64,000 nt of DNA, taken from contig OZ220699.1 of assembly GCA_965116565.1 (NCBI GenBank), positions 3,658,858-3,722,857 of the forward strand. The letters run 5' to 3'. Below the pieces are notes generated by a model, which did no database searches, was not told the DNA's origin, and saw only the letters and a program-made list of their open reading frames with translations. Of this stretch, positions 21,503 through 38,435 are shown one piece after another (positions within the stretch are counted from its first letter, which is position 1; each line of letters starts with the position of its first letter). This stretch comes from Dehalococcoidia bacterium. GTDB lineage: Bacteria > Chloroflexota > Dehalococcoidia > Lucifugimonadales > UBA3495. Both the position numbers and the translations under genes were made by a program.

Positions 21503-21543
21503 GGATGTACAGGATGTACAGGATGTACAGGATGTACAGGATG
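21503..21543. repeat. 9-bp tandem repeat (GGATGTACA) x4.5
   Basis: Perfect copies at 21503, 21512, 21521 and 21530, then a partial GGATG. Confidence 0.9.
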
Positions 21544-21829
21544 GGGGTTTGGGATTCGTGAGGTTGGGTGGCAGGGAGGTTGGGCGAGCGGCCGGTCGCC
21601 CCTGCGACGGGTGGCGTTGGATGATTGGGCAGGGCGGGTTTGCAGGAGAACCCTGATTCTCTCGCCCCACAGGCGGATGTTCGGCCCGAAAGGGGCGGGG
21701 CCATTGTCATGGCGACGACGGTTGCCATGAGCGCGGTAAGGAGGAGCCAACAGTTGAAAATCGATGGCCCTGGCGCATACCCAAAAGCACTGGCGTACCG
21801 AATTAATATTCGGATATAATGAAGGCACT

Positions 21830-22519
21830 ATGACGATGGCCTGCATCATCATCAAGCACCTGCCCTGCCGGGTGGAAGCGGCCCGCCATTCAGTCCTGCG
21901 GCGTAACCCGCTGGTGGTTTACGACCCGCTCTCGCCGCTGCAGCGTGTAGTGGACGCCTCTCCCGGTTGGCGCATTCATCCCGACATGCCCTTGCGCACC
22001 GCTCTCACCCGCTGTCCCGAAGCCGTTGCGACTCCCGCCAACTCGGCCCTGTATGCACAGCGTTGGCGCGCCGTAATCGACCGTCTGCGCAACGTCCGGG
22101 ACGACGTCGATGACGCTGGGTTGGGCGCCGCCTACGTGGGCATCAGCGCCGGCGACCGTCCGTCCACTGACGAGCCGCGCCTGGTCGCCGATCTCATGCA
22201 ATGTATTCCCAGCGATTGGGAACCGCAGGTGGGCATCGCATCCGACCGTTTCGCCGCCCACTGCGCCGCCAGAGTCGCCCGGCCCGGCCATGCCCTGCGG
22301 GTGCCAGATGACCCGGAACCTCGTCGCCAATTCCTCGCGCCCCTGTCCGTCAACCTCCTGCCCGTGGACGTGCACATCCTCGCCGGCCTGCACGACCGGG
22401 GCATACACCGCCTGGGCCAACTCGACGACCTGTCCGCCGAAGGCCTGGAAGCAACGTTGATGGAACAGTCGGAGACGGCGCCGGAGCCGGGCCACGGCAA
22501 ATTGCCCCGCGCAGCATAA
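21830..22519 (+). CDS. Y-family DNA polymerase-like protein (ImuB-like, lacks catalytic acidic motif, C-terminally short)
   Basis: MACIIIKHLPCRVEAA..PLVV..VVDASPGW..MPLRTALTRCPEAV and ..FLAPLSVNLLP.. follow the Y-family N-terminal layout without the DxD residues. The ORF ends at about 230 aa, where homologues continue. Confidence 0.5.
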   Translation: MTMACIIIKHLPCRVEAARHSVLRRNPLVVYDPLSPLQRVVDASPGWRIHPDMPLRTALTRCPEAVATPANSALYAQRWRAVIDRLRNVRDDVDDAGLGAAYVGISAGDRPSTDEPRLVADLMQCIPSDWEPQVGIASDRFAAHCAARVARPGHALRVPDDPEPRRQFLAPLSVNLLPVDVHILAGLHDRGIHRLGQLDDLSAEGLEATLMEQSETAPEPGHGKLPRAA

Positions 22520-22662
22520 TTCCTGTTCATCTTGTCCATCGACGTCAGACCCGTCGTGGGCGGCAGCGTTTCTTGCGCCCCTCTACCGCGCTGGGTATGA
22601 TGCTGCCCATCGTTCGTCGCCCTACCTGAATCCCTCTCGGCGGCGATGCTGGAGGTTCCTCA

Positions 22663-23604
22663 ATGTCCGTGATGGTCACCGGCGGCACCGGGTTCATCGG
22701 CAACCGCATCATCCGCAAGCTGGTCGAACGCGGCGAGGACGTCGTCTGCTTCGACCTCGCTCCCCCGCGCGCCAACCTGCAGCCCCTGATGGACCGCATC
22801 TCCATCTATCGCGGCGACGTCACCCGCCTGGACCATCTGCTGGAAGCCGTCAACCGCCACGACGTTGACCGCATCATCCACATGGCCGCGCTGCTGCCGC
22901 CCGACACCGAGGACAGGCCCGCCACCGGCATGGCCGTCAACATCGACGGCTGCAACAACGTCTTTGAGGCCGCGCGCTGGGGCAACATCAAGCGCGTCAT
23001 CTATGCCAGCAGCATCGCCGTGTACGGCGTGCAGGACACTTTCGGCGACCGGCCTTTGATCGAGGACGACCTGCCCGCGCCCATCAACGTGTACGGCATG
23101 ACCAAGGCCGTCAACGACTTCGCTGCCGCCCGGTACCGTACTCTGCACGGGCTGGATATACGCGGCATCCGCATCTGCACCGTCTTCGGACACGGCCGAG
23201 TAACCGGCATGACCGGGATGATCGGCGGCCTGATGATGTCCCTGCCCGCCATCGGCCAGCCCGTCAGCATGGACTTCGATCCCATGGAGGCGTCGCCCAT
23301 GATCCATGCCGAAGACGCCGCCGAGATCTTCGTGCGCGCCGCCCTGGCCGACAATCTGAACCATCACATCTACATCAGCGGCGGCGAACTGGCCACCATC
23401 GCCGACGTGGCCGACATCGTCCGTTCCTATATCCCCGACGCCAGCATCACCACCGGCAGCCGGCCCGTCCCCCACGTGTACCTGGTGGACAACAGCCGCA
23501 TGATGGCCGACCTCGGCTACGAGCTGCCGCCCCTGCGCATGCGCGTGCTTGACCACATCAACGACGCCCGCGCCGAGGCCGGCCTGGAGCCGATATCAGG
23601 CTAG
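22663..23604 (+). CDS. NAD-dependent epimerase/dehydratase (extended SDR)
   Basis: VMVTGGTGFIGNRI Rossmann motif in a 313-aa ORF. Confidence 0.85.
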   Translation: MSVMVTGGTGFIGNRIIRKLVERGEDVVCFDLAPPRANLQPLMDRISIYRGDVTRLDHLLEAVNRHDVDRIIHMAALLPPDTEDRPATGMAVNIDGCNNVFEAARWGNIKRVIYASSIAVYGVQDTFGDRPLIEDDLPAPINVYGMTKAVNDFAAARYRTLHGLDIRGIRICTVFGHGRVTGMTGMIGGLMMSLPAIGQPVSMDFDPMEASPMIHAEDAAEIFVRAALADNLNHHIYISGGELATIADVADIVRSYIPDASITTGSRPVPHVYLVDNSRMMADLGYELPPLRMRVLDHINDARAEAGLEPISG

Positions 23605-23638
23605 ACCGGACTTGATACAATGTGCTCACGTGATAACC

Positions 23639-24238
23639 ATGAGCAAGCCAGAACTCAACACGGCGCAAAACGAGCAGATCGTCGCCCTGGGCCAACGACA
23701 CAAGGTGCGCCGGCTAACCTGGCTTCATGAACCCGTCCGCAGCGGTCCGGATGCCGGAACCGAGGCGATGCTGATCGAGTTCAACCCCGCGGACGTGCCC
23801 TCGCTGTCGGCGCTGGCAGCCATGGAGGAGGAAATCGGCGGCATCCTGGGGCGCAAAATCGACCTGCACCTGTACCTGCGGGAGATGTACCTGGGCTACG
23901 GGCCCGGCGAGGACGGCATCGTGTACGACCGGGCCGACCACTTGGATATCCCAATGCCCAGGGAGAAGATCGCCGAGTTCTGCAAGCGCAAGAAAATCCG
24001 GTGGCTGGCAAAACTACCGTACCCCAGCCGCGAATCCGTCAACAGTTACGCCGACATTAGATTTCTTGCCGAGTTCGAGCCCGGCGTCAAAGTAGGCTGG
24101 GACATATTCACGATGGGAGATGAGCTGGGCAAGGTGCTTGGCTGCCTGGCCAGCATCGACAGGGCGGGACCAAGAGACTCCGATTGGATTGCCGAGTTGA
24201 AAAAAACCGCTCAAGTGCAATATGAGCGACCGCACTGA
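23639..24238 (+). CDS. tandem degenerate MNT-like (nucleotidyltransferase-fold) protein, putative HepT antitoxin
   Basis: Two MNT-like halves. Half 1 reads WLHEPVRSG..TEAMLIEF..LGRKIDLH. Half 2 reads LAKLPYPSRES..ADIRFLAEF. The GS and DxD catalytic positions are replaced in both. It overlaps the hepT start by 17 nt. Confidence 0.6.
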   Translation: MSKPELNTAQNEQIVALGQRHKVRRLTWLHEPVRSGPDAGTEAMLIEFNPADVPSLSALAAMEEEIGGILGRKIDLHLYLREMYLGYGPGEDGIVYDRADHLDIPMPREKIAEFCKRKKIRWLAKLPYPSRESVNSYADIRFLAEFEPGVKVGWDIFTMGDELGKVLGCLASIDRAGPRDSDWIAELKKTAQVQYERPH

Positions 24239-24581
24239 TGCGGAGCGTATCGGCGACATGGTGCGGCACGCCAACGAAGCCATGGCCGTACTGGGCGATG
24301 CCGAATTTGCGGAGTTCTGCGACAACCGCCAGATGCAGCTGGTAATCTTTTATTTGGTAACGGTGGTCGGCGAGGCCGCCAGCAAGTGCGATCCCGATAC
24401 TTTGCGACACTACCCGGGGATTCTTTGGCACCAGGTCAGGGGCGCCAGAAACCACCTGGTGCATGACTACTACAAAATAAACCTTGGCACCGTGTATGAG
24501 ATAGTGATGGAGCATCTGCCCATTCTCATCGCCGCACTACAATCCCCTACCCACAACCACCCAGGAGGACAACCATCATGA
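24222..24581 (+). CDS. hepT: DUF86/HepT HEPN toxin
   Basis: 119 aa with the Rx4H motif RNHLVHDY near the C-terminus, downstream of an MNT-like gene. Confidence 0.75.
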   Translation: MSDRTDAERIGDMVRHANEAMAVLGDAEFAEFCDNRQMQLVIFYLVTVVGEAASKCDPDTLRHYPGILWHQVRGARNHLVHDYYKINLGTVYEIVMEHLPILIAALQSPTHNHPGGQPS

Positions 24582-25519
24582 GCGTTGCCATCGGCTACGT
24601 CCCCGGCGCATTCGGACAGGGAGGCGACGACCCCAACTTCCTCCGCACCCTGGTGGAACTGGGCGACCGGTACGAATACGACTCCATCTGGCTCAGCGAC
24701 CGCATCTGCAGCGACCGGTTCAGTCTGGAGCCCATGGTTGCCCTGTCACTGGTGGCCGGCTACTCCGACCGCCTCAAGTTCGGCACCAGCGTGCTGGCCC
24801 TGCCTCTGCGCAACCCCGTGGTGCTGGCCAAGCAGGTCGCCACGCTGGACTGGCTCTCCCAGGGCCGGTTCTTCCCCGCCGTCGGCCTGGGCCAGGAAGA
24901 TCCCGACGAGTACGAGGCCTGCGGCGTGCCCAAGGCCGACCGCGCCCGCCGCACCGACGAGGCCATCGCCCTGATGCGCCGTCTCTGGGAGGAGGAAGAC
25001 GTCACCCACGAGGGCGATTTCTTCACCACCCATAACGTATCCGTCACGCCGCGCACCTTCCTCAAGCCCTCGCCTCCGGTGTGGATCGGCGGGCGCAGTC
25101 CCGCCGCCGCCCGGCGGGTCGGACGCGTTGGGGATGGCTGGCTTGTCTCCAGCGCCACGCCGGAGGAGGTCCGCTCCGGCCGGGAAATCGTATTCGAGAC
25201 CGCCCAGCAGTACGACCGTGAAATCGAGGAGGACCACGTCGGCGTGCTCATCGGCTACTACATTTGCGACGACCAAGCAGACGGCGAGGCCAGGTCCGAG
25301 CAGTTCGTGACCCGCCAGCGACCCGACGCCCACTTCACCGAGTACTCCGCCGTCGGCACCTCCGAGCAGATCGGCGACTTCATCCAGGAGTACATCGACG
25401 CCGGCGGCTTCAAGTTCGTCATCCGCCCGCTGTGCGCCGGCACTGAGTCAATGGAGCAGCTGGAACAGGCCGGCGAGGAAATCCTGCCCCGATTCCACGG
25501 CCCGCTGGGCAGCAAGTAG
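24578..25519 (+). CDS. LLM-class (luciferase-like) F420/flavin-dependent oxidoreductase
   Basis: ..YDSIWLSDR.., KFGTSVLALPLRNPVVLAKQVATLD and ..GRFFPAVGLG are typical of the LLM family. Confidence 0.8.
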   Translation: MSVAIGYVPGAFGQGGDDPNFLRTLVELGDRYEYDSIWLSDRICSDRFSLEPMVALSLVAGYSDRLKFGTSVLALPLRNPVVLAKQVATLDWLSQGRFFPAVGLGQEDPDEYEACGVPKADRARRTDEAIALMRRLWEEEDVTHEGDFFTTHNVSVTPRTFLKPSPPVWIGGRSPAAARRVGRVGDGWLVSSATPEEVRSGREIVFETAQQYDREIEEDHVGVLIGYYICDDQADGEARSEQFVTRQRPDAHFTEYSAVGTSEQIGDFIQEYIDAGGFKFVIRPLCAGTESMEQLEQAGEEILPRFHGPLGSK

Positions 25520-25540
25520 AGAATCCCGGGAGGCCGCGCC

Positions 25541-26140
25541 ATGACCACCTCCAAGCCCAAACTCCGCACCGGGACCAGCATGTCCCTCGATGAATTCCTC
25601 GGCCTCGGCGAAACCGACGAGCGGCTGGAGTTGTTTGACGGCGTCCTTTACCTGATGAGTACACCTACCAAAGACCACCAGTTTTTGATGCGTTGGATTG
25701 CCCGGCACTTTGACGACCACATCGATGCCTTTGAAAGTCCGCCAGCGGAAATTCATTTGGATATAACCACCATCCTATCCCCGGAACTTCAGCGTGCAGT
25801 GGAACCGGACATCGTAGTGATTCTCGCTGGCCGCAACGATATCGGCGGCGTCCGCCACGTAGAAGGCGTCCCTAACATCGTGGTGGAAATCCTGTCTTCC
25901 GACCGCAACCACGATTTGGTGTTCAAGCGACGGATTTACGCCGAGGCCGGGGTTCGCGAGTACTGGATATTCGACCCGGTCAACGACACCGTCCTGCCGC
26001 TGGAACTGCAGGACGGCGAGTACGCCGAGCGTCCGACCCTCACTGCCGCAGACACGCTTACCACGCCGCTGCTGCCCGGCCTGTCCATCCCTCTGGCCGA
26101 CATCTTCCAACACCGTCGCCGCCCGCCTAAGGACGAGTAA
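25541..26140 (+). CDS. Uma2-family endonuclease-like protein (tandem copy 1)
   Basis: ..VEPDIVVI.., PNIVVEILSSDRNHD and YAEAGVREYWIFDP. Confidence 0.8.
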   Translation: MTTSKPKLRTGTSMSLDEFLGLGETDERLELFDGVLYLMSTPTKDHQFLMRWIARHFDDHIDAFESPPAEIHLDITTILSPELQRAVEPDIVVILAGRNDIGGVRHVEGVPNIVVEILSSDRNHDLVFKRRIYAEAGVREYWIFDPVNDTVLPLELQDGEYAERPTLTAADTLTTPLLPGLSIPLADIFQHRRRPPKDE

Positions 26141-26159
26141 GTTCGCCGGAGGCCGTGCC

Positions 26160-26765
26160 ATGACCACCTCCAAACCCAAACTTCGCACCGGGACCCGCAT
26201 GTCCGTCGACGAGTTCCTGAACTTGCCGGAAATCGACGAATACCGCTGGCTGGAACTCGACGACGGGGAACTCTACTTTATGCCCAGACCCAGGCGTGGC
26301 CACCAATTCCTTGCACTTCGACTGACGACGCAATTTGACAATCATCTGGACAGCTTCGACGAGCCGCCGGCAGAGGTGTACACCGAGTTGGTTGTCATCA
26401 TATCGCGAGAATCGGGTCGAATCCTGATTCCCGACCTGTCCATTTTCCTGCGAACGCCTGGGGACGATACCGACATCAGCGCCGCCGGAAATATCCCCGA
26501 CATCATCATCGAAATCCTCTCCACCGACCGCAACCGCGACCTCGTTCGCAAACGCCAGATCTACGCCGAGGCCGGCGTCCGCGAGTACTGGATCTTCGAC
26601 CCCCAGAACGACACCGTGCTGCCCCTGGGACTGCACGACGGCGAATACATCGAGAGCCCAGCCCTCACCTCGGACGATACCCTCACCACCCCGCTGCTGC
26701 CCGGCCTGTCCATCCCCCTGGCCGACATCTTCCATCACCGCCGGCGCCCGCCTCGGGATGAATAA
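26160..26765 (+). CDS. Uma2-family endonuclease-like protein (tandem copy 2)
   Basis: Paralogue of 25541-26140 with the same N-terminus (MTTSKPKLRTGT), the same RBS context, and C-terminal LTTPLLPGLSIPLADIF. Confidence 0.8.
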   Translation: MTTSKPKLRTGTRMSVDEFLNLPEIDEYRWLELDDGELYFMPRPRRGHQFLALRLTTQFDNHLDSFDEPPAEVYTELVVIISRESGRILIPDLSIFLRTPGDDTDISAAGNIPDIIIEILSTDRNRDLVRKRQIYAEAGVREYWIFDPQNDTVLPLGLHDGEYIESPALTSDDTLTTPLLPGLSIPLADIFHHRRRPPRDE

Positions 26766-26856
26766 CCCGCTGGGTTGCCCCGGCTATCCGGGCATACTAT
26801 GATTGCCCGGTCGTTAAATCTCAAAACGTTATCCTGTTGAAAGGAGCAGCCTCCAA

Positions 26857-27828
26857 ATGAAAGCAGCCCAGCTCGTCGCCCCCAAGCGTTGGGAATTCAC
26901 CGAAATTGACACGCCGGCGCCTGTTGACGGCCAGGTCCTGATCAAGATGGAGTCGGTCAGCGTCTGCGGCTCCGACATCCGCCACACCTACGGCCCCGTC
27001 CTCGACGAGTCGGAATACCCCATGGCTCCCTGTAAGGGCGCTCACGAGCTCGCCGGCGTCATCGTCGACAGCAAGACCGACGAGTTCCAGGAAGGCCAGC
27101 GCGTCATCGTGATTCCCTACCCCGGCACCGGCGGACTCTGCGATTACGTGCTTTCGGAACCGGGCCGCATGGCGCTCCTCCCCGAATACGGAGGACTCGA
27201 CGAGTGGGTCATGTGTCAACCGCCCGGCACCGTCCTCTATTCGTGCCGCCAGATGGGCAGCCCCCTCCAGCAGAACATCCTCATTTTCGGCCAGGGCAGC
27301 ATCGGCCTCAGCTTCACCATGATCCTGTCCCGCATGGGCGCACGCAACGTCATCGTCGTTGACCCGCTGGACTACCGCCTCGAGAAGTCCAAGCAGATGG
27401 GTTCCACTCATCGAATCAACCCCGACAAGCAGGACGTCCACGAAGCGGTCATGGAGATCACCAGGGGCGCCGGCCCCGACGTTTGCGTCGAAGCTGCCGG
27501 CTACCCCGACTCGCTGAACGAGTGCTTCCGCCACGTCCGCCAGTTCGGCCAGGTCATCATCTTCGGCATACAGACCGACCACATGGTGCCCATCGAGCAC
27601 AACCTCTGGATGGACAAGCAGCCGCGCATCATTCCCACCACCGGCGCGCGCAGCGGCGACCCCATCAGCCAGATCCAGGACATGGTAGACCTGCGCGACC
27701 GCGGCTGGGCTGATCCCGCCGAACTGATCACCCACCGCGTCGGCTTCTCCGACATCCAGCAAGCCTACGACATGTACGAGCAGCGCGACGATAACATCAT
27801 CAAGGTGGTCATGGACATCAACACCTAG
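26857..27828 (+). CDS. zinc-dependent alcohol/polyol dehydrogenase (MDR family)
   Basis: ..SVSVCGSDIRHTYG.. plus a GQGSIGL Rossmann motif in 323 aa. Confidence 0.8.
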   Translation: MKAAQLVAPKRWEFTEIDTPAPVDGQVLIKMESVSVCGSDIRHTYGPVLDESEYPMAPCKGAHELAGVIVDSKTDEFQEGQRVIVIPYPGTGGLCDYVLSEPGRMALLPEYGGLDEWVMCQPPGTVLYSCRQMGSPLQQNILIFGQGSIGLSFTMILSRMGARNVIVVDPLDYRLEKSKQMGSTHRINPDKQDVHEAVMEITRGAGPDVCVEAAGYPDSLNECFRHVRQFGQVIIFGIQTDHMVPIEHNLWMDKQPRIIPTTGARSGDPISQIQDMVDLRDRGWADPAELITHRVGFSDIQQAYDMYEQRDDNIIKVVMDINT

Positions 27829-27904
27829 GCCACCACCGGCGTGGCGTGATGCCACGCACAACACGGGGGCGGATCCGGATCCGTCCCCCGTCATATATTT
27901 TGGT

Positions 27905-28957
27905 TTGACTTCTACCCCGTCAATCACGGCCCTCACGCCAGGCGGACGGGTCCGGCTGGCCCGGGAGAACCTGTGCCTGGCGATGGCGATGTACGCGGCA
28001 TCCCACCGGGGCCTGATCACCGCCACTCTCCTCCCCAACCGCGCGGAAGTCAGCCGCGAAAGCGGGCAGGCGCCAGATTCCAGCCTCCCGTTGGAGGTAA
28101 CGGACTATCGGTCCCTGTTGCGCACCACCGGAAACCAGGTCCGCGGCGCTTTCGCCCTTCTGGCGATGCAAACGCAGCGCGAGGCCGAAACCGTGTTCGG
28201 CTCCGTTTCACACCTGCCTCCACGGGCCGCCGACCAACCGGAAGTCGAACTCTGGAATGCCCGCGCCGCCACATACCTGATCGCCCAGAGCGTCGCGCTA
28301 GACCTCATGGCCCCCACCTGGCGCATACCTCCCGAGTTCCGCCAGTCCTACGCCATTCCCGGTCTGGACTTCATCCTGGACGCATCCTCTCTGCATGGTG
28401 AGGAGATCCGTTGGGGACACTTCGGCAGTCTGGCGCGCTATCTCGACCTGTCCCTGTTCGTTTCGTACTGCCTCGACGACATCGACATCGCGGTCGCGTC
28501 GGAGGCGGCGTCGGGCAACTATGGACTGCTGGGGCTCCTCGCGGAGCGCATATCCCATGAAATCCCGTCGGCAAGTCCGATCAGCGACGCGCGCGGCTAC
28601 GGCAGCGGGTCCGGCCGGCTCCGCCCGACCGGGTCGTTGGACGAAACCATCGACACCGACGCCCCCGCCGGATGGATTGCCCCGGACGGCCCGCCCGAAC
28701 CGCGCATCACCGTCGCGTCCCAGGCCACCGAAATGGGCCCCATCGACGACTTTGTCGCCAACGCCTGCTCCACCGGGGAGCGGGCGATGAATCTCGCGGG
28801 CGACCTGTACACGTCATACGCCAACTGGTGCCTGGACAACGGGTACCTCGCCCACAGCCAGCGCAAGTTCGGCCTCGAATTGCGTGCCCGCGGTTTCGAG
28901 CGCAAAAGACGCGGCAAGGGCAAGCACTGGTGGGTCGGAGTGGAATCCCGGGTTTGA
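27905..28957 (+). CDS. hypothetical protein with phage/plasmid primase C-terminal-like domain
   Basis: The C-terminal IDDFVANAC..LYTSYANWCLDNGY..SQRKFGLELRARGFERKR.GKGKHWWVGV resembles the C-terminal DNA-binding region of P4/D5-type primases. The N-terminal 260 aa is unrecognised and the TTG start is uncertain. Confidence 0.4.
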   Translation: MTSTPSITALTPGGRVRLARENLCLAMAMYAASHRGLITATLLPNRAEVSRESGQAPDSSLPLEVTDYRSLLRTTGNQVRGAFALLAMQTQREAETVFGSVSHLPPRAADQPEVELWNARAATYLIAQSVALDLMAPTWRIPPEFRQSYAIPGLDFILDASSLHGEEIRWGHFGSLARYLDLSLFVSYCLDDIDIAVASEAASGNYGLLGLLAERISHEIPSASPISDARGYGSGSGRLRPTGSLDETIDTDAPAGWIAPDGPPEPRITVASQATEMGPIDDFVANACSTGERAMNLAGDLYTSYANWCLDNGYLAHSQRKFGLELRARGFERKRRGKGKHWWVGVESRV

Positions 28958-29001
28958 CCGGCTGTCCAACGGTCGAAAAACACATCGGCCAACGTCTCTG
29001 G

Positions 29002-29023
29002 AATGTTACACAGACGTAACATT
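29002..29023 (+). promoter_or_regulatory. palindrome AATGTTAC-ACAGAC-GTAACATT upstream of small peptide gene
   Basis: 8-bp arms with a 6-bp spacer, 87 nt upstream of ATG 29110. A diverged copy at 29341-29360 lies upstream of the paralogous peptide gene. Confidence 0.45.
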
Positions 29024-29109
29024 GGCGCAAAACCCGTGAAACACGGAGCGACGATAATTGTCTCATCGAAACGGGCAGACCTGCCCAAACCGAATGGAGA
29101 CAGACTGAA

Positions 29110-29259
29110 ATGCTTGCCATAGCCGCCGGCGCCGCCTTTGTTGGATTGTTCGCTCTCTGGGTCATCGTGCCCCGGTTCGTCCTGCGCCGACACAACAACG
29201 AGTCCACCCCTATGGCAACCCAGCCTCAGGAAGAATTTGCACCGCAGGCCGCTGACTAG
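29110..29259 (+). CDS. 49-aa single-TM peptide (unannotated in ORF track)
   Basis: MLAIAAGAAFVGLFALWVIVPRFVLRRHNNESTPMATQPQEEFAPQAAD. GGAGA lies 8 nt upstream, a terminator follows, and a paralogue lies 330 bp downstream. Confidence 0.55.
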   Translation: MLAIAAGAAFVGLFALWVIVPRFVLRRHNNESTPMATQPQEEFAPQAAD

Positions 29260-29282
29260 CCGCCTAATCTCCTCACTAGCTT

Positions 29283-29316
29283 AGGGCTCGGGGATAACCT
29301 GGGCCCTTTTTGTTTT
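29283..29316 (+). terminator. rho-independent terminator
   Basis: AGGGCTCGGG-GATAA-CCTGGGCCCT stem (with G-U pairs) followed by TTTTTGTTTT. Confidence 0.5.
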
Positions 29317-29439
29317 CCATTGATCGAATCTCTGATCACGGTTACACAGGCGTTACATTGCCGCAAAACGGGCGCAACAAATTACGGACATACTGCCCCC
29401 ACTAATCAATCAACCTGATTCAGAGGGAGACAGACTGAC

Positions 29440-29601
29440 ATGCTTGCCATTGCCGCCGGCGCCGCTTTCGTAGGACTCTTCGCGCTCTGGGTGCTCGTTC
29501 CCAAGTACTTCATCCGGCGCAAGGAGAACGAAAACACCGTCGTCGCGCCGATGCGACACGAGGATGCGGCCGCGCAACCGACGCCATCGCCCGCTGACTA
29601 G
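29440..29601 (+). CDS. 53-aa single-TM peptide, paralogue of 29110-29259
   Basis: MLAIAAGAAFVGLFALWVLVPKYFIRRKENENTVVAPMRHEDAAAQPTPSPAD. It has the same GGAGACAGACTGA-ATG context. Confidence 0.55.
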   Translation: MLAIAAGAAFVGLFALWVLVPKYFIRRKENENTVVAPMRHEDAAAQPTPSPAD

Positions 29602-29627
29602 CTCGAACTCTTCATATCACGGATCAA

Positions 29628-29657
29628 CCCGGGGAGCGCGCGTTCCCCGGGTTTTTT
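29628..29657 (+). terminator. rho-independent terminator
   Basis: CCCGGGGA-gcgcgcgt-TCCCCGGG followed by TTTTTT. Confidence 0.7.
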
Positions 29658-29952
29658 GTTGTTGGCGCATGGTGACAATCTGCCCTGGCCCACAGGGTAC
29701 AGGCGCCTCATAATGACGCCACTGTGTTACGTGACCGCTGGTCAATCACAGCTACCGGCCCATGCGTACCCAGTTTGTTGGTGGTGGATGGGGAAGAGGT
29801 TGTCGGGTGGGTCGGGGTTGGCGGGGCAGATTTCGTAGCCCGTTGGTCTTCCTGCAATTCACCAAAATGCGGAGCCACCGATACACTCGGCGGCCCGCTG
29901 TCGAGTGCGCGCGTGTTCCGTTAATGGACAATGCCCGGCGAGCCCCGAAGCT

Positions 29953-30855
29953 TTACGGGACCCTGATCGTTAGCGTGCCGGATCCGGCCAGATAGCCGTT
30001 CACGTAGGACCAGAGGGCCAGCGTTTCCTCACCGTCGCTATCGTCGATGGCCTCAATGGTCATCGCGGCTCGTTGGGCATCCCCGACCTTCGACCCGACT
30101 ATGTACACCCGGGCGCCGTCGTGGTGGATGTTGCGCGTGAACGGCCGGTCGGGCAGGATGTCGCAGCAGCCGTCCCTGACGATGATGTCGTCCGCATCAC
30201 CGGTGCTTTCCACGAGGCCGACGTGCAGCGTCACGCCGATCTGCCGCTCTGCGTCCACCGTCACGTCCGGATTGGTCTGGAGGACCTGCAAAGTCGTTGA
30301 TCCGCCTTCGTCAACGGCGTTCGTCCAGGTAACTTCCCACCTGGGAGCGTTGGGATCCGGCACGGTTACCCAGACACGACCCTCGCTGCTCAGAGTTCCG
30401 TCGGAGATGGTGTAGTGGAAGCTGTCCCGACCGATGAACCCATCGTTGGGCGTGTACTCGACCAAATTGTCCGATAGAATCGTGGCCTGCCCGTGTCCTG
30501 GCTGGGTAATCGCGCTCACCGACAGGTTTGCCCGGTCGCCAACAAGATACACGTCGTTGATCAGCACGGCTATTGTAGTGCTCGACTCCGTCAGCCGCAT
30601 CAGAACGGCATCTGTGCGAGCGATGATCTGACTATGGCTGCTTTCATCGGGGCCGACCGGCGATCCTCCCTGGAATGTGTTCTCGATGCGGGCGCCTTCC
30701 AACCCGGTCGGGCCGGGATTTGATTCGTCCTCGGTTGCCATGAGAAGTTCGGACACGCCCTGCGCTTCACCTGGAAGCAGCCAGAGCAACGCCCCCAGGA
30801 CAAGAAGCGCCAGCATGCTTGCGGCGCCGATTTTGATCGAAATGTTTCTGTTCAT
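29953..30855 (-). CDS. secreted protein with cadherin/Ig-like repeat
   Basis: Start at ATG 30855 after AAGGAG. It has a signal peptide (..LLWLLPGEAQG). ..ITQPGHGQATILSDNLVEYTPNDGFIGRDSFHYTISDG.. resembles cadherin-like/Big repeats. Confidence 0.5.
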   Translation of the reverse strand: MNRNISIKIGAASMLALLVLGALLWLLPGEAQGVSELLMATEDESNPGPTGLEGARIENTFQGGSPVGPDESSHSQIIARTDAVLMRLTESSTTIAVLINDVYLVGDRANLSVSAITQPGHGQATILSDNLVEYTPNDGFIGRDSFHYTISDGTLSSEGRVWVTVPDPNAPRWEVTWTNAVDEGGSTTLQVLQTNPDVTVDAERQIGVTLHVGLVESTGDADDIIVRDGCCDILPDRPFTRNIHHDGARVYIVGSKVGDAQRAAMTIEAIDDSDGEETLALWSYVNGYLAGSGTLTIRVP

Positions 30856-30972
30856 AAAATCTGCTCCTTTGGGTCGTATGGAACCCGGTGTTGTATATCG
30901 GCAGGAATTACCCGACCCCAAGCGCGCGCAGGGCGGCGGGTTTGCCTGTCATGTTCAATTACGATAGAGCTG

Positions 30973-31332
30973 ATGGCACGGATGTTTGACCCGAGTGTCC
31001 ACCGAAACGTCCGCAGCGGCGGGATATCAATGATGACCCGGGCAACCCACCTCATTCGCCAGGGGCGGACTACGCTCTTCGCGATGACAAACTGGGTACG
31101 CGTGAGCAGCCACCGGCTCATGAACTCGAGAACCCGTTTGTATATAATGGCTTTCGCCGCCTACACCAGCGCCCTGCTGGTGGCGGCGGTATTCGCGTGG
31201 GTGGCGCTGCAATACAGCATGGCGGCCGGCGTGGCCCAATTGGCAGTCGCCCTCAGCGGCAACGAGATAGGAGGTTTCGCTTTGTTGCTTGGAATCCTGC
31301 GCGACGACCGCGCCCAAAAAGCCGAAGAGTAA
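30973..31332 (+). CDS. hypothetical membrane protein (start uncertain); same frame continues past TAA into a coiled-coil segment to 31551
   Basis: Two hydrophobic segments (AYTSALLVAAVFAWVAL and GGFALLLGIL). After TAA 31330-31332 the same frame reads ATKAQQETNKFRQEVEELRLHAEQQRQRAERAEAELERL.. up to TGA 31549-31551. Confidence 0.3.
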   Translation: MARMFDPSVHRNVRSGGISMMTRATHLIRQGRTTLFAMTNWVRVSSHRLMNSRTRLYIMAFAAYTSALLVAAVFAWVALQYSMAAGVAQLAVALSGNEIGGFALLLGILRDDRAQKAEE

Positions 31333-31557
31333 GCCACAAAAGCGCAACAGGAAACCAACAAGTTTCGGCAGGAAGTGGAGGAACTCCGATTGCATGCTGA
31401 GCAGCAACGCCAACGCGCCGAACGCGCCGAGGCCGAGTTGGAACGACTCCGCTCCGCGCGGGAGGAGGAATTCGCCGCCCGGCTCCGCCGTCTCGAAACC
31501 GCCGCCGGCCTCATACCACCCGACGCGTCCGACGACGCCACGGAGATCTGAACCCGC

Positions 31558-33564
31558 ATGCCAAAAACCATCGTAGGAATTGATGTCGGTGGCACGTTCA
31601 CCGACATTGCCATCCTGGAGGACGGACGCCTTTCCGTTCACAAGCTCCCCTCGACGCCCGCCGATCCGTCCCAGGGCATCACCCGTGGCATCAGCGAGAC
31701 CGACGTTGATACCGCCGCCACCGATTTCATCCACGGCAGCACCGTCGCCACCAACGCCCTCCTGGAGGGCAAGGGCGGGCGCACCGCCCTCGTCACCACC
31801 CTGGGGTTCGAGGACGTGCTGGAAATCGGACGCCAGAACCGCGCCGACCTGTATGACCTGTCCATGGAGCGGCCCACGCCGCTTTCCCCCTGGCAGCTAC
31901 GCTTCGGCCTCCCCGAGCGCATCGACTACACCGGCGCCATCCTCGACGACCTCACGCCCGAATCCGTGGACGCGCTGCTGTCCCTGCTGGCTGAGGCAGA
32001 GGTCGATGGCATCGCCGTGTCCTTCCTCTTCTCCTTCTTGAACCCAATCCACGAGGAGACCCTGGCGCGGCGTCTCTCCGAGTTGCCCAACCAGCCATTC
32101 ATCTCCATCTCCTCGAAAATCCTGCCCGAGTTCCGGGAGTACGAACGCACCAGCACCGTCGTCGTCAACTCCTATGTCGGCCCCGTGATGGCCCGCTACC
32201 TCACCCAACTGGAATCCGTTTTGGGTCGCGGCCTGCGCATCATGCAGTCTTCCGGCGGCAGCATCACCGCCAGCCTCGCCGCCGAGCAGCCCGTGCGCAC
32301 CATCCTCAGCGGTCCCGCCGGCGGAGTCGTGGGCGCCTTCTACACCGGTGTCCAGGCTGGCTACCCCGACATCATCACCCTGGACATGGGAGGCACCTCC
32401 ACCGACGTTTCCCTCTGCCCCGGCCGCATCAAGGAAACCACCGCCGCCAACCTGGGCGGTTACCCCGTAAGCGTCCCCATGATTGAGATCCACACCGTCG
32501 GAGCCGGCGGCGGATCCATCGCTCGCGTGGACGCCGGCGGCGCGCTGGTCGTGGGCCCCCAGTCCGCCGGCGCAGACCCCGGCCCGGCCTGCTATGGCCG
32601 CGGCGACCGCATCACCGTCACCGACGCCAACCTGACCCTCGGCCGCCTGCGTCCCGACGGTTTCCTGGGCGGCCGCATGACCCTCGACCTCCAGCGCTCC
32701 CAGACGTTGCTGTCCGACCTGGCGGACGGTGTCGGAGCGTCCGCCACCGAAACGGCCCTGGGCATAATCCGGGTCGTCAACTCCAACATGGAGCGCGCCA
32801 TCCGCGCCATCTCCCTGGAACGCGGCTACGACCCCCGCGAGTTCACGCTGATCCCCTTCGGCGGCGCTGGCCCGATGCATGCCTGCGAACTGGCCGCCGA
32901 GTTGGGCATCCCCCGCGTGCTGGTGCCCGGGCATCCGGGCATCCTGTCCGCCCTGGGCGTCGCCATCGCCGACGTGGTCAAGGACTACTCGCGCACCGTG
33001 ATGCTGCGGGGCGAGGACCTTGACCAGGCTCGCCTCGATACCGAGTTCCGAGGCATGGAGCAGCTGGCCCGCGCCGAACTGCTCGACGAATCCCTGCCCG
33101 CCGACGACATGACGCCACGCCGTTTCCTGGACGTGCGATATGTGGGCCAGTCCTTCGAGCTGACGGTGGATTGCCCATCTCTGGACGCCCCCGGCAACCT
33201 CACCGACTACATATCGGCAGACTTCTACGGAGCCCACCTGCAGCGGTTCGGTTACGCCGACCGCGACCTGCCCATCGAGGTGGTCAACCTCCGCCTGAAA
33301 TTGGAATTAGCCGTGGACAAGCCGACGTTGGAACCGGCCGCGTCCCAGGGGGCCAACTCATCCGCCGCCGCCATCGGTTCGGCCGAGGTCGTTTTCGCCA
33401 GCGGTCCCGTGAACACCACCCTCTACGACCGCGACCAACTGCAAACGGGCAACCGCATCGCCGGACCCGCCCTCCTGCTCCAACTCGACACCACCATCGT
33501 CGTCCCGCCCGGCTGGAACGGCGAAATCGACCCCTACGGCAACCTGATTCTGGAGCCCGCCTAA
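31558..33564 (+). CDS. hyuA: hydantoinase/oxoprolinase A subunit (HyuA family)
   Basis: 668 aa with the N-terminal IVGIDVGGTFTDIA ATPase motif and typical Hydantoinase_A layout. Confidence 0.85.
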   Translation: MPKTIVGIDVGGTFTDIAILEDGRLSVHKLPSTPADPSQGITRGISETDVDTAATDFIHGSTVATNALLEGKGGRTALVTTLGFEDVLEIGRQNRADLYDLSMERPTPLSPWQLRFGLPERIDYTGAILDDLTPESVDALLSLLAEAEVDGIAVSFLFSFLNPIHEETLARRLSELPNQPFISISSKILPEFREYERTSTVVVNSYVGPVMARYLTQLESVLGRGLRIMQSSGGSITASLAAEQPVRTILSGPAGGVVGAFYTGVQAGYPDIITLDMGGTSTDVSLCPGRIKETTAANLGGYPVSVPMIEIHTVGAGGGSIARVDAGGALVVGPQSAGADPGPACYGRGDRITVTDANLTLGRLRPDGFLGGRMTLDLQRSQTLLSDLADGVGASATETALGIIRVVNSNMERAIRAISLERGYDPREFTLIPFGGAGPMHACELAAELGIPRVLVPGHPGILSALGVAIADVVKDYSRTVMLRGEDLDQARLDTEFRGMEQLARAELLDESLPADDMTPRRFLDVRYVGQSFELTVDCPSLDAPGNLTDYISADFYGAHLQRFGYADRDLPIEVVNLRLKLELAVDKPTLEPAASQGANSSAAAIGSAEVVFASGPVNTTLYDRDQLQTGNRIAGPALLLQLDTTIVVPPGWNGEIDPYGNLILEPA

Positions 33565-33917
33565 ACGCTCTCCAACAACCGAATGAAGTCTGCTATCTGG
33601 CTTTTCCCATGGCGAATCATGCGTTCGTCGGGTGGACCGCCGTAAAATCGAGAGTGAAACCAGTTAGCCGACGTATAGTAGGTGTACAGAATTGGCGGAG
33701 CGCCCTCGTCATCAACCAGACGCATCACCACTTCCTCCAGATCCCGGTGTGAGCCGTGGGCCCATCCTCGGCTCTCGGCGACGGCCTTGATCGCATGTGC
33801 AGCCGCTCCCCATACCTTGTTGCCGGCCTCTTCCAACTCACCCCGTGCCACCTCATCATCCACCAATTCCAGAAAATGCCAGCTACGCTCGGCGTGGTAT
33901 TCAACGGCCGTTGTCAT
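33561..33917 (-). CDS. PaREP1/HEPN-like small helical protein
   Basis: ..GELEEAGNKVWGAAAHAIKAVAESRGWAHGSHRDL.. matches the EK.WGA..A.K..A..RGW.H.SH pattern shared with 46884-47399. Confidence 0.45.
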   Translation of the reverse strand: MTTAVEYHAERSWHFLELVDDEVARGELEEAGNKVWGAAAHAIKAVAESRGWAHGSHRDLEEVVMRLVDDEGAPPILYTYYTSANWFHSRFYGGPPDERMIRHGKSQIADFIRLLESV

Positions 33918-34016
33918 CGTTTCCCTCGTTCAACAATGTAGGATCAATGTAACACGGCGTCTGCCCCACTGCAAAATCATTCACACCTTTTGCACAATAT
34001 ACGGATAATCTCAGTT

Positions 34017-34826
34017 ATGACCACTAACATCTCCCGCCTCTCCGTCCTAGCCTGCTTCGCCCACCCCGATGATGAGGGGTTTGCGTCCGGCGGACTTCTC
34101 GCCAAACTCGCCGGCGGCGGCGCCCGCGTAACCCTGGTCTGCGCCACCAACGGCGACATCGGCGAGATCAGCGATCCGTCCCTCGCCACTCCCGAGAACC
34201 TCTGGCAGGTCCGCAAGCAGGAGCTGCGCAACGCCATGGCCATCACCGGCGTCAGCGACCTGCGCTTCCTCGACTACCGCGACAGCGGCATGGTCGGCTG
34301 GGACGACAACAATCACCGCAACGCATACTGCAACGCCGACGATGACCATGTGATCGGCCTGCTCGCCGGCATCATCGCCGAGACCAATCCTCACGTCGTG
34401 CTCACCCACGACCCCAGCGGCGGCTATGGCCACCCCGACCACAAGACCATGTCAGATCACGCCACCGCCGCCGTGCAGCGCGCCTCCGACCCCGACGGCT
34501 TCACGCCTCTGCTCTACTACGTCTGCTTCCCGCGCGGCGTCTTCCAGCGCTGGTGGCAGGAGATGCTGGACCGGGGCATCGAGCCGCCCTTCGCCGTGGA
34601 TGCCATCGACTCGCTGGGCACCCCCGACGACGAGGTGACCACCACCGTGGACGTGTCAGCGTACGTAGACACCAAAATCGCGTCCCTGAAATGTCACCGC
34701 ACCCAGATCAGCGACGACGGCCCCTTCTTTCAACTCCCCCAGGACATCATGGCCGGCCTCATGGGCACCGAATACTACCAACTGGCCGCACCTTCCGGCG
34801 CGACGGATTTGCTGGCTGGGTTATGA
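34017..34826 (+). CDS. PIG-L/LmbE-family deacetylase
   Basis: VLACFAHPDDEGF and ..HPDH.. metal-binding motifs. Confidence 0.8.
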   Translation: MTTNISRLSVLACFAHPDDEGFASGGLLAKLAGGGARVTLVCATNGDIGEISDPSLATPENLWQVRKQELRNAMAITGVSDLRFLDYRDSGMVGWDDNNHRNAYCNADDDHVIGLLAGIIAETNPHVVLTHDPSGGYGHPDHKTMSDHATAAVQRASDPDGFTPLLYYVCFPRGVFQRWWQEMLDRGIEPPFAVDAIDSLGTPDDEVTTTVDVSAYVDTKIASLKCHRTQISDDGPFFQLPQDIMAGLMGTEYYQLAAPSGATDLLAGL

Positions 34827-34874
34827 TGCTGAAGGTACGTAGATCAAGTTTTAAGCGGGGAGTAGGAGGGCATC

Positions 34875-35294
34875 GTGACGCAAAAGCGCCAAACACACGA
34901 CGACTGGATCATCCTGCCCGGCACCACCATCGGAGGCGAAGTGGGTACTTTCAGGGTTGATTTCACCATCCGCAACCGCAACACCGGGCAATCCCGAGAC
35001 TTGAACGGCCTTGTGGATACCGGCGCGTCATACACCATCATTCCGACGCATATTCTGGACGAGTTGGGCATCGAACACGATGAAACGGAGTTGTTCAGCC
35101 TGGCGGATGGTTCCGTGCAGGAACTGGACATCGGACTAGCCGATATGGATTTGCAGGGACGTACCCGCACCGTGTACGTCGTCTTTGGCACCAGCCGCGA
35201 GAAAATACTCCTCGGCGCCATGGCCCTGGAATCTTTCGCCCTTGCCGCCGACGCCAAAAACCACCGCCTGATCCGCGCCGAGTTGACGATTTAG
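34875..35294 (+). CDS. retropepsin-like aspartic protease
   Basis: LVDTGAS active-site motif, about 139 aa, GTG start after GGAGTAGGAGG. Confidence 0.65.
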   Translation: MTQKRQTHDDWIILPGTTIGGEVGTFRVDFTIRNRNTGQSRDLNGLVDTGASYTIIPTHILDELGIEHDETELFSLADGSVQELDIGLADMDLQGRTRTVYVVFGTSREKILLGAMALESFALAADAKNHRLIRAELTI

Positions 35295-35341
35295 CGACCA
35301 CCCTTTCACGCACCGGATACCGAACGAGGACCACACTCACC

Positions 35342-36961
35342 ATGCCCGTTGACGCGATCAGCCTCGAAGTTTTCAAGAACATGTTCATCTCCGTTTCCGA
35401 GGAGATGGGCGTGGCTCTCCAGCGCACCAGCTACTCCACCAACATGAAGGAGCGCCAGGACTTCTCCTGCGCCCTCTTCAATCCCGCGGCCGAAATGGTC
35501 GCCCAGGCCGCCCACCAGCCGGTCCACCTGGGAGCCATGCCGGCCTCCGTGCAGGCCGCCCTCCAGACCTTCCCCGACGGCCTCGCGCCCGGCGACATCA
35601 TCATCCTCAACGACCCCTACCTCGGCGGCTCCCACCTGCCCGACATCACCCTCGTCGCCCCCGCCTACACACGTCCTTTGACAGATCACACCGACGACGG
35701 CCAGGAACTCATCGGCTACGTCAGCAACCGCGGCCATCACTCCGACGTCGGCGGCATGGCCCCCGGCTCCATGCCCCTGTCCACCGAGCTATACCAGGAG
35801 GGGATGATCATTCCGCCCCTCAAGCTTGCGGACGCCGGCCGTATCAACCAGGAGCTGATCGCCCTCATCTGCCGCAACTCCCGCACCCCCGATGACCGCC
35901 AGGGCGACCTCGCCGCCCAGATCGCCTCCATCCGCGTCGGCGACATCCGCCTCACCGAGATCGCACAGCGCTACGGCCTCGCCGAAACCCACGAGCACAT
36001 GGCCGCGCTGCTCGACTACTCCGAGCGCCTCACCCGCCGCCGCATCACCGAGATACCCGACGGCACCTACCGCGTAACCGACTACATGGACGACGACGGC
36101 CAGACCGATGAGCCGGTCGCCATCAGCGTCGCCGTAACCGTCGCCGGCGACCGCCTCACCATCGACTTCACCGGCACCGCCGACCACCGGCCCGGCTGCA
36201 TCAACGCCCCCCGCGCCGTCACCGTCTCCGCCAGCCTATACGTCGTCCGCTGCGTCGTCGGCGACGAGGCCCCCGCCAACCAGGGCTGTCTGCGTCCCGT
36301 CGAGGTCATCACCCCGCGGGGCAGTCTGGTCGATCCCCTGCCCCAGCGCGGCGTCGCCGGCGGCAACGTGGAGACCTCCCAGCGCATCACCGACGTCCTG
36401 CTGGCCGCCATGAGCCAGGCCATGCCCGACAAGATTCCCGCGTCGTCCCAGGGCACCATGAACAACATGATCGTCGGCGGCCACGACATCTCCCGAGACA
36501 AGCCCTACGTGTACTACGAGACCATCGGCGGCGGCATGGGCGCGCGCCCCGACAAGGACGGCATCTCCGGCATCCACACCCACATGACCAACACCATGAA
36601 CACGCCGGTTGAAGCGCTGGAGTTCGCGTTCCCATTGCGCCTGCGCCGCTACGCCCTGCGCCGCGGATCCGGCGGCGACGGCCTGCACCGGGGCGGCGAT
36701 GGCCTAATCCGCGACGTCGAGTTCCTCAGCCCTGCCCGCGTCACCGTCCTGTCCGAGCGTCGCCGCTACGCGCCCCCCGGCTACCACGGCGGACACCACG
36801 GCCACCACGGCGAAAACGTCCTGCTCAAGGGCGGCTACGAAGAGGTCCACCTGGCCGGCAAGGAAACCCTGGACGTGGAGGCCGGCGACATCCTCAGCAT
36901 CCGCACTCCCGGCGGCGGCGGCTGGGGCGCTCCCACCGGCGACCACGACCACCACCATTAA
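35342..36961 (+). CDS. hyuB: hydantoinase/oxoprolinase B subunit (HyuB family)
   Basis: 539 aa. The N-terminal DAISLEVFKNMFISVSEEMG and overall Hydantoinase_B layout fit the family. Confidence 0.85.
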   Translation: MPVDAISLEVFKNMFISVSEEMGVALQRTSYSTNMKERQDFSCALFNPAAEMVAQAAHQPVHLGAMPASVQAALQTFPDGLAPGDIIILNDPYLGGSHLPDITLVAPAYTRPLTDHTDDGQELIGYVSNRGHHSDVGGMAPGSMPLSTELYQEGMIIPPLKLADAGRINQELIALICRNSRTPDDRQGDLAAQIASIRVGDIRLTEIAQRYGLAETHEHMAALLDYSERLTRRRITEIPDGTYRVTDYMDDDGQTDEPVAISVAVTVAGDRLTIDFTGTADHRPGCINAPRAVTVSASLYVVRCVVGDEAPANQGCLRPVEVITPRGSLVDPLPQRGVAGGNVETSQRITDVLLAAMSQAMPDKIPASSQGTMNNMIVGGHDISRDKPYVYYETIGGGMGARPDKDGISGIHTHMTNTMNTPVEALEFAFPLRLRRYALRRGSGGDGLHRGGDGLIRDVEFLSPARVTVLSERRRYAPPGYHGGHHGHHGENVLLKGGYEEVHLAGKETLDVEAGDILSIRTPGGGGWGAPTGDHDHHH

Positions 36962-37067
36962 TCTCATGGTCTGCGCGGCCCCGCCTCTCATCGTGAGCAA
37001 GGCTGTACCAACCGCCGCCGCGTAGGGGCGAGTAAACATTCGTCGGTCGCGCGAAACCCCAACCGTA

Positions 37068-37091
37068 CGGGCGGGTTTGAAACCCGCCCCG
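37068..37091. repeat. REP hairpin CGGGCGGGTTTGAAACCCGCCCCG
   Basis: Same core as the 10160-10182 hairpin, but without a T-run here. Confidence 0.7.
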
Positions 37092-37145
37092 CGTTATGCT
37101 CCCGCAACGCGCAATCCCATCGCGATTTTCGAAGCGTCGGACCGA

Positions 37146-37613: not shown

Positions 37614-37701
37614 GACCTCCTCCATCTGCTGCGGGTCGACGGAAAGCCTCCGACTCGCATTGAAATTCTTATATCGGATAATCATTATTGATACATACAA
37701 T

Positions 37702-37730
37702 ATATTACGGCCCATCGGCGCTGTCGTCAA
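37702..37730 (-). promoter_or_regulatory. sigma70-like promoter TTGACG-17-TAATAT
   Basis: Read on the minus strand, with exact 17-nt spacing, 89 nt upstream of ATG 37613. Confidence 0.45.
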
Positions 37731-37920
37731 TCAACTCGCTCCAATCGCCCGAACGCACGCTCACCAGTGCTCCGATCCAAATCGAACGCCATCCCGCTCA
37801 TCCCGTCCATACCGTCCATCCGTGCAAACTAAAACCGGCGACACCTCGCCGTTGCCCTTGCTTGGCTGACCTCGCTATCCTGTATTCATCTAGATAAAAC
37901 GCGCGTTAGCAACCCGATCA

Positions 37921-38221: not shown

Positions 38222-38435
38222 AAACCCAACGAACCGAAAAACCCTCTCCCATCAAAGGAGAGGGTTGGGATGGGGGTGAAAACACCGCCAAACCAGCCCC
38301 TTCCCGATGACCCGTAAACCGCAAAACGAGGGTACGGGGTCCAAAGCTGCCCCGTGCCTGGTCCCGGATCTCTGGCAGATCCGCCAGCGGAGTTTTCATG
38401 ATTCTCCCCTTCAGGCCAAAAAGGGGATTTCTCGG

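Follow-up and report, generated by a model that had tools for sequence, protein, structure and literature searches.

What do two small tandem gene units in a bacterium of the class Dehalococcoidia encode, and which signal would switch them on? The units lie in a 64,000-nt stretch (hereafter the window) that covers positions 3,658,858 to 3,722,857 of contig OZ220699.1 in assembly GCA_965116565.1; the host genome is 3.87 Mb in size, and whole-genome searches and controls refer to this genome. A preliminary description, made from the DNA letters alone, had placed two tandem cassettes at 28990-29657, each consisting of an upstream box, a leader, a ribosome-binding site (RBS) with its start codon, and an open reading frame (ORF) closed by a terminator, and had likened the encoded peptides to type I toxins. 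All four parts were located in both cassettes at these positions, and the genes were designated pepA (cassette A) and pepB (cassette B). They are real, separately transcribed paralogous genes for a small single-pass membrane protein. On balance, we consider it probable that the two peptides are nitrogen-regulated small membrane proteins under a GlnR-type switch and that they act with the ammonium transporter Amt.

Two paralogous genes and their family

The ORFs, the predicted helix in each product and the stems followed by T-runs bore out the existence of a tandem duplicate of genes for a small protein with one transmembrane (TM) segment, each gene having its own terminator (Table 1). The stretch from the RBS to the start codon was GGAGACAGACTGAA-ATG in cassette A and GGAGACAGACTGAC-ATG in cassette B. 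Over the first 27 codons pepA and pepB differed at 15 codons, and 10 of these 15 differences were synonymous. The 29-nt core of the upstream box had exactly two copies in the genome, both in these cassettes, and a third copy of the peptide was not found elsewhere in the 3.87 Mb. Both ORFs were indeed missing from the ORF track on which the preliminary description relied; since public gene callers annotate homologues as 'hypothetical protein', this absence was merely an effect of the length cut-off. A collection of 5.8 billion proteins contained 95-282 clusters of the family, all named ones of which were labelled 'hypothetical protein [Chloroflexota]'.

A search for the peptides in related genomes had been proposed, and a six-frame search matched 35 of the 36 other genomes of the genus, with 1-3 tandem copies in each. 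Selection was analyzed with 31 distinct 49-residue orthologues, for which the synonymous substitution rate (dS) was approximately 0.8-1.0. The reading frame was conserved with the synonymous bias that the preliminary description had named as the decisive property of a true gene: the ratio of non-synonymous to synonymous rates (dN/dS) was 0.15-0.18 in the conserved parts, separated by a more variable linker. Judged from these codon substitutions, both the TM helix and the C-terminal motif are under purifying selection. At least 12 genus genomes had a gene of type B. In five genus genomes (loci L007, L009, L010, L014, and L018), the B-type gene lay 40-90 nt past the A-type gene in a bicistronic unit, with neither an array nor a terminator of its own, so that the two-cassette layout of the window is one of two alternative arrangements.

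Structure prediction by AlphaFold2 with 30 homologues gave a single helix at residues 2-31, followed by a disordered tail; the predicted local distance difference test score (pLDDT) was 88-96 for residues 1-20. The predicted topology, with the N-terminus outside and the C-terminus inside, fits the positive-inside rule because the basic patch follows the helix. The family profile also recovered shorter relatives of 27-35 residues with the consensus ME-x-ILGGVAF-x-GLF-x-LWVVLPSKLRKxR. These were found in 52 of 201 sampled genomes and in 31 of 103 genera of the order, as well as in other classes of the phylum. In most lineages the peptide was barely more than the TM helix plus five basic residues; the long acidic tail, of roughly 20 residues, predicted to be cytoplasmic and carrying a conserved end motif, was peculiar to this genus. 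Comparison of the peptides with Pfam, NCBIfam, PADLOC and PDB profiles gave no match below E = 0.1.

Two observations concerned the limits of this distribution. At loci L157-L166, from another class of the phylum, 31-residue relatives (MPLAVEAILGLVAFLGLFLMWAVVPAQIRKR) stood alone, with neither a GTAAC array nor an amt gene within 1.6 kb, and the regulation and surroundings of the family differ in that lineage. Genome G027, from the same genus (5.3 Mb, 95% complete), had no significant peptide match (best E 0.13) and had kept the array upstream of amt (locus L074); the absence of the peptide there may be a natural loss, which would make this genome of use in comparisons.

The upstream element and its occurrence at amt and glnA genes

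Approximately 50 orthologous upstream regions were aligned; the consensus was derived from 47 of them, in all of which the array type of cassette A was kept, and 40 distinct leaders were used for the spacer and the -10 hexamer. The conserved unit comprised four hexamers at an exact 11-nt phase, GTWACA-N5-GTWACA-N5-GCAAAA-N5-G(T/A/C)AACA, the third being the least conserved. In all 40 leaders, box 4 was followed by an invariant 9-nt spacer and then by sATAmT, and the start codon came 45-56 nt past this hexamer. The upstream element had been described as a palindrome with 8-bp arms, AATGTTAC/GTAACATT. Such arms are present in cassette A; among the orthologues, boxes 1 and 2 each had A or T in the middle, independently of one another, which produced inverted, everted or direct arrangements. 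The palindrome of cassette A is therefore incidental, and the real unit is the set of four boxes at 11-nt phase. A LexA site or other palindromic operator and a promoter for an extracytoplasmic function (ECF) sigma factor (AAC-N16-CGT) were both dropped as candidates, since what stays invariant is the 9-nt spacing to sATAmT, and boxes 1 and 2 vary freely in their middle base.

A TTGACA-like -35 hexamer was not found at the peptide promoters, and the lack of a -35 match at pepA fits what is expected of an activator-dependent promoter. A row of four sites at intervals of one helical turn that reaches approximately position -22, in a promoter devoid of a -35 element, represents the classical design of activators of the OmpR/PhoB family. 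The letters of the box and their conservation favour a GlnR-type four-site activator array over a palindromic operator. The leader was revised as well. The roughly 70-nt leader ascribed to each cassette, with small hairpins noted in A, includes boxes 3 and 4 and the -10 hexamer, and the predicted 5' untranslated region (UTR) amounts to approximately 45 nt; the small hairpin at 29073-29086 was confirmed, in cassette A only.

The same array was then recognized at amt and glnA. The window carries two amt and two glnA genes, with E-values of 1e-111 to 1e-134 for the Pfam families Ammonium_transp and Gln-synt (Table 1), and the array upstream of amt was kept in all 29 genus loci that cover this region. 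The strict pattern GTWACA-N5-KTWACA-N16-GNAACA matched the genome at three places, namely amt2, pepA, and pepB. Across the order it gave 50 matches in 41 of 121 genomes, and the reversed pattern, used as the control, gave none. In 30 fetched loci of strict matches, the downstream gene was nearly always amt, a glutamine synthetase gene (type I or type II-like) or the peptide gene. The complete combination of array, 9-nt spacer and -10 hexamer preceded all 38 peptide genes in 29 loci of the order and 49 of 55 in the genus, and occurred in 0 of 20,000 random windows of this genome. The six exceptions in the genus were five second genes of bicistronic pairs and one gene with a degenerate array. 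A relaxed regular expression gave four sites in the genome (amt2, pepA, pepB, and one beside a candidate regulator), and its controls gave none. These results showed a cis-element common to the peptide, amt and glnA genes, and the combination can serve in this group as an annotation marker of near-zero background for nitrogen-regulated promoters.

Table 1. Positions of the genes and of the known or predicted elements, numbered from the first nucleotide of the window unless otherwise indicated.
Feature	Position	Strand	Details
pepA activator-site array	29005-29043	+	GTTACA 29005-29010, GTAACA 29016-29021, GCAAAA 29027-29032, GAAACA 29038-29043; read from sequence
pepA predicted -10 hexamer	29053-29058	+	GATAAT; 9-nt spacer from box 4; putative promoter
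pepA predicted 5' UTR	29065-29109	+	~45 nt; conserved CATCGAAAC start region; hairpin GGGC-N6-GCCC; RBS GGAG 29096-29099
pepA	29110-29259	+	49 aa; N-terminal TM helix MLAIAAGAAFVGLFALWVIVP, basic patch RFVLRRH, variable linker, conserved acidic end EEFAPQAAD
pepA intrinsic terminator	29283-29317	+	10-pair stem 29283-29307, then T-run TTTTTGTTTT
pepB activator-site array	29341-29379	+	GTTACA 29341-29346, GTTACA 29352-29357, GCAAAA 29363-29368, GCAACA 29374-29379
pepB predicted -10 hexamer	29389-29394	+	CATACT; 9-nt spacer from box 4; putative
pepB RBS	29426-29429	+	GGAG, inside conserved GGAGACAGACTGA
pepB	29440-29601	+	53 aa; pepA paralogue; same TM helix, basic patch KYFIRRK, tail ending PSPAD
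pepB intrinsic terminator	29626-29663	+	12-pair stem 29626-29653, then T-run TTTTTGTTGTT
TM helix and basic patch	codons 1-28		dN/dS 0.18
Linker	codons 29-41		dN/dS 0.71
C-terminal end ..FAPQAAD	codons 42-49 (last 8)		dN/dS 0.15
Second glnA	2107-3447	-	Pfam Gln-synt
glnA	3786-5210	-	Pfam Gln-synt
amt2	5271-6491	-	ammonium transporter; Pfam Ammonium_transp
amt2 array	6626-6679	-	GTAACA-N5-GTAACA-N5-GTCATT-N5-GTAACA, 9 nt, -10 hexamer TACGAT
amt1	6817-8211	-	Pfam Ammonium_transp
ORF directly upstream of pepA	27905-28957	+	350 aa
Candidate OmpR-family regulator	genome 1397671-1398396 (outside window)	-	atypical receiver domain; candidate for array binding

Other ways of scoring the element were less useful. 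A weight matrix over the full 39 nt was over-fitted and recovered just its training sites plus amt2, and a score for the best three of the four hexamers had a high background, with controls reaching 21. A site upstream of an XRE-like gene at genome position 1105877 was rejected, being probably an ordinary TTGACA/TACTAT promoter. Upstream of amt1, at 8302-8355 on the reverse strand, a degenerate array (GCAACA / TTAATT / GCAATC / GTTAAC, followed by TACGAT) was visible; it was not significant, as a looser regular expression gave as many matches in the controls. The 5' leader of amt2, approximately 130 nt long (6492-6625, reverse strand), contained a nested stem, CCGnCG ... GGCCATCCGC-loop-GCGG ... 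CGGCGG, that was conserved across the genus, with compensatory changes in 5 of 12 predicted pairs and no Rfam match. This stem might be a regulatory RNA element for expression of the ammonium transporter.

Candidate regulator and comparison with GlnR promoters

The genome encodes an OmpR-family regulator with an atypical receiver domain whose three best PDB matches were 8HIG, 8HIH, and 8HML, with E-values of 2e-26 to 8e-25; RegX3, MtrA, and PhoB ranked behind them. Of these structures, 8HIH is the GlnR of Mycobacterium tuberculosis and 8HML that of Saccharopolyspora erythraea (PMC10235972). A looser four-box array ending at CATAGT lay upstream of the regulator gene and was not significant alone; the match beside this gene that the relaxed expression detected points to a divergent operon. 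At this place (G000:C1:1397671-1400025, locus L142), the regulator gene is divergent from an operon, and the 250 nt between the two contain arrays in both orientations; this arrangement suggests that the regulator controls its own gene and that the regulon has a further member. The first product of the divergent operon resembles a circularly permuted ATP-grasp protein, as judged by eye. In other genomes, the genes for homologues of the regulator directly adjoined amt, glnA or peptide genes that carry the boxes (G068, G074, G096, G104, and G148) or were 1-4 kb away from such genes (G041, G080, and G081). From these matches and positions we infer that the candidate regulator may bind the boxes.

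In Actinobacteria, GlnR boxes have the form gTnAc-n6-GaAAc-n6-GtnAC-n6-GAAAc (a1-b1-a2-b2), in which a2 is dispensable, and four protomers bind head-to-tail around -35 (PMC10704036; PMC10235972). RNA polymerase is recruited by the bound protomers. The array of the window resembled the GlnR promoters of amtB, glnA, and glnII in Streptomyces, Mycobacterium, and Amycolatopsis in its GTnAC/GnAAC 5-mers, in the 6-nt gaps, and in the number of four sites. In both, the sites lie on one helix face around -35, conservation is lowest at the third of them (a2), and the targets are amt and glutamine synthetase genes; here, too, the genome encodes a regulator that has GlnR among its best solved relatives. 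The two systems differed in several respects. The host here belongs to Chloroflexota, not to Actinobacteria, and both the binding and the nitrogen response are predicted ones. The regulon seems tiny, with four strong sites in the genome. A mini membrane peptide is a very constant member of it, whereas we encountered no such report for the actinobacterial regulons.

Gene neighbourhood and possible partners of the peptide

Outside the genus, amt was within 1.5 kb of the peptide gene at 28 of 29 loci (13 of 14 genera). The usual orders were amt1-pep(-pep)-glnA or pep-amt2, and in most loci the ORF stood downstream of amt1. Operons behind a single array had the order pep-amt2 in genome G157 and pep-glnA in G073. 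Pairs of amt and peptide genes also occurred in two other classes, including G449, where the peptide gene began 30 nt past amt. The gene neighbourhood thus ties the peptide to amt, and from it we infer a physical or functional partnership with Amt.

Within the genus, the peptide genes were inherited vertically at a conserved chromosomal site. They followed a conserved zinc-dependent alcohol dehydrogenase (Zn-ADH) gene and a gene for a 312-350-residue protein of unknown function, and the genes downstream varied. In the window, this second position is taken by the 350-residue ORF directly upstream of pepA, the N-terminal 270 residues of which had no assigned domain; its end matched Pox_D5 (E 8e-4) and the P4 primase C-terminal domain (E 5e-4) weakly. 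In other genus members a protein of 312-338 residues, with no Pfam match, was encoded between Zn-ADH and the peptide. Since these relatives have such proteins at the same position, the 350-residue ORF did not enter by a recent insertion but belongs to the conserved genes of the chromosome.

The following sequence of events would account for these findings. Under nitrogen limitation, a GlnR-like orphan regulator of the OmpR family would occupy the four boxes and recruit RNA polymerase to the -35-less promoters of pepA, pepB, and amt2. As the array is common to the amt, glnA and peptide genes, the peptides are predicted to be turned on together with ammonium uptake and assimilation. The short, unstructured mRNAs with their strong GGAG sites would be translated and the peptides inserted in the membrane, where they would most likely act on or with Amt, in the role of a regulatory or accessory subunit. 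Through the acidic tail specific to the genus, the peptide may offer a cytoplasmic partner an additional place to dock. A more specific version of this scheme can be offered only tentatively and is rather less likely than the general one: the peptide might be a dedicated single-pass subunit or regulator of Chloroflexota Amt, and its genus-specific tail (..EDFAPQAAD) might recruit a nitrogen-signalling protein of the cytoplasm, for example GlnK or glutamine synthetase, or compete with it; taken with the box arrays, this would also place nitrogen assimilation in a second phylum under an actinobacterial-type GlnR switch. To our knowledge, plugging by PII/GlnK alone has been described as control of bacterial Amt. 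PII/GlnK is encoded in this genome, and PII genes stand beside amt in some relatives; a role of the peptide as a replacement for glnK was therefore ruled out, and the peptide would add to GlnK rather than substitute for it.

Several small membrane proteins are linked to transporters, such as KdpF (29 aa, Kdp ATPase), MgtS (31 aa, PhoP-induced, acting on MgtA and PitA), AcrZ (49 aa, AcrB), and SgrT (PtsG). The peptides described here are of similar size (27-53 aa) and likewise have one TM helix; they resemble these proteins also in their predicted induction by the signal of the transporter and in a gene that often adjoins the transporter gene or shares an operon with it. They had no sequence similarity to them, the Pfam, NCBIfam, and PDB searches being empty, and the interaction with Amt is putative. 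We know of no single-TM subunit of a bacterial Amt. The 61-residue protein sP36 of Methanosarcina mazei has AmtB1 and GlnK1 as binding partners and mediates the inhibition of ammonium transport (PMC10714827). It is a small protein of the nitrogen response, as the present peptides are predicted to be, and since it targets an ammonium transporter it is a precedent for control of Amt by a small protein beyond PII. However, sP36 is archaeal, soluble, relocated to the membrane only on nitrogen upshift (PMC10714827), and unrelated in sequence, whereas the peptides here are integral membrane proteins.

Some observations weigh against a peptide that is regulated by nitrogen through a GlnR-like protein and acts with Amt. 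Members of this genus have the peptide genes either at a distance of 9-24 kb from amt or without linkage to it, with the array retained; in the window they are 23 kb from amt2, and the shared array is the sole link to amt. Genome G027 has the amt array and no detectable peptide, which indicates that Amt has no strict need of the peptide. Adjacency to amt would fit glutamine synthetase, GlnK or a sensor as the partner equally well. The promoter, the transcription start and the nitrogen response of the peptide genes are predictions. In the order-wide mapping of the regulator, the E-value alone did not separate orthologues from paralogues, and because OmpR-family paralogues are abundant, the candidate is a putative GlnR orthologue. 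Boxes of the PhoP type in Bacillus subtilis (TTAACA repeats in an 11-bp phase) look similar; no pst or pho promoter was among the top motif matches, all of which were at amt, glnA or the peptide, and pst and pho promoters were not specifically located or checked.

The alternative that survives best shares the nitrogen regulation and all the evidence for it and places the target elsewhere: the peptide might anchor glutamine synthetase or PII/GlnK at the membrane or modulate one of them there, or it might exert feedback on the GlnR-like regulator or on a sensor. The glnA gene is adjacent in many loci (amt1-pep-glnA), the order box-pep-glnA forms an operon in G073, PII genes are found in some of these clusters, and the conserved end motif of the genus tail suggests a cytoplasmic binding partner. 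However, amt was the most constant neighbour (28 of 29 loci), compared with only about 10 of these loci for glnA, and for a peptide that is nearly a bare TM helix a membrane-embedded partner is the simplest. A target other than Amt therefore appears unlikely, although it is a serious competitor among the alternatives.

The likeness to type I toxins drawn in the preliminary description was not supported. If the peptides belonged with such toxins (TisB, Hok, Ldr, Ibs, and Fst), they would depolarise the membrane, be restrained by an antisense RNA, and slow growth on release under stress, in this case nitrogen starvation. The peptides (49 and 53 aa) share with such toxins the small size, the hydrophobic segment with a charged tail, the occasional tandem arrangement, and the stand-alone units with their own promoter and terminator, and toxic peptides under stress control exist, such as the LexA-controlled TisB. 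However, neither an antisense RNA gene nor a leader occluding the RBS was detected. No sigma-70-like site was seen on either strand of 28500-30200, and thus none that would start an opposite-strand RNA, and Rfam scans of 20000-40000 and 1-12000 gave sub-threshold chance matches only, including suhB/mmgR at the pepA terminator (E 0.37). The leaders of about 45 nt, as delimited by the predicted start site, were no more structured than shuffled sequences (z = +0.12 for A and +1.75 for B), and the centroid structure of the B leader was unfolded. PADLOC gave no match. The distribution was neither patchy nor associated with mobile DNA: inheritance is vertical, with a single chromosomal site in 35 of 36 genus genomes, and the genes are syntenic in nitrogen-assimilation clusters across the order and phylum, in the order behind an array of the amt type. 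Such a phyletic and operon pattern is typical of a housekeeping member of a nitrogen regulon. Copies co-transcribed ahead of amt or glnA are hard to reconcile with a toxin, and we regard this function as improbable.

Still less credible is a purely cis-acting role, in which the ORFs would be leader peptides or upstream ORFs whose translation, and not the product, regulates neighbouring nitrogen genes. The positions between the array and amt in G157 and between the array and glnA in G073 would suit it; on the other side, each ORF in the window has a strong terminator of its own and no downstream gene in its unit, most loci have the ORF behind amt1 and not before it, and selection acts on the TM helix at the amino acid level across the phylum. 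Finally, the cassettes would be the cargo of an integrated mobile element, or what is left of one, if they had been delivered along with the upstream ORF whose end weakly resembles the Pox_D5 and P4 primase C-terminal domains; this is scarcely believable, because the order ADH, unknown protein, peptide is kept in genus members despite differing downstream genes, neither an integrase nor a tRNA was found, the GC content dips only modestly (29000-29500), and the peptide family and its array are far older than the genus.

Regulation of the peptides by nitrogen and action with Amt thus appears the most probable interpretation. In the literature, we found no description of GlnR-type control in Chloroflexota, nor of an amt-linked single-TM peptide. 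Small membrane proteins routinely escape annotation, and few of them have a defined partner or signal; the present family is under strong selection across a phylum and usually lies next to amt, so that its context is clear and testable. If the partnership with Amt is true, the peptide would be a new component of the control of ammonium transport, and the known range of the GlnR-type switch would widen beyond Actinobacteria to take in Chloroflexota, among them abundant uncultured lineages of marine and sponge-associated bacteria.

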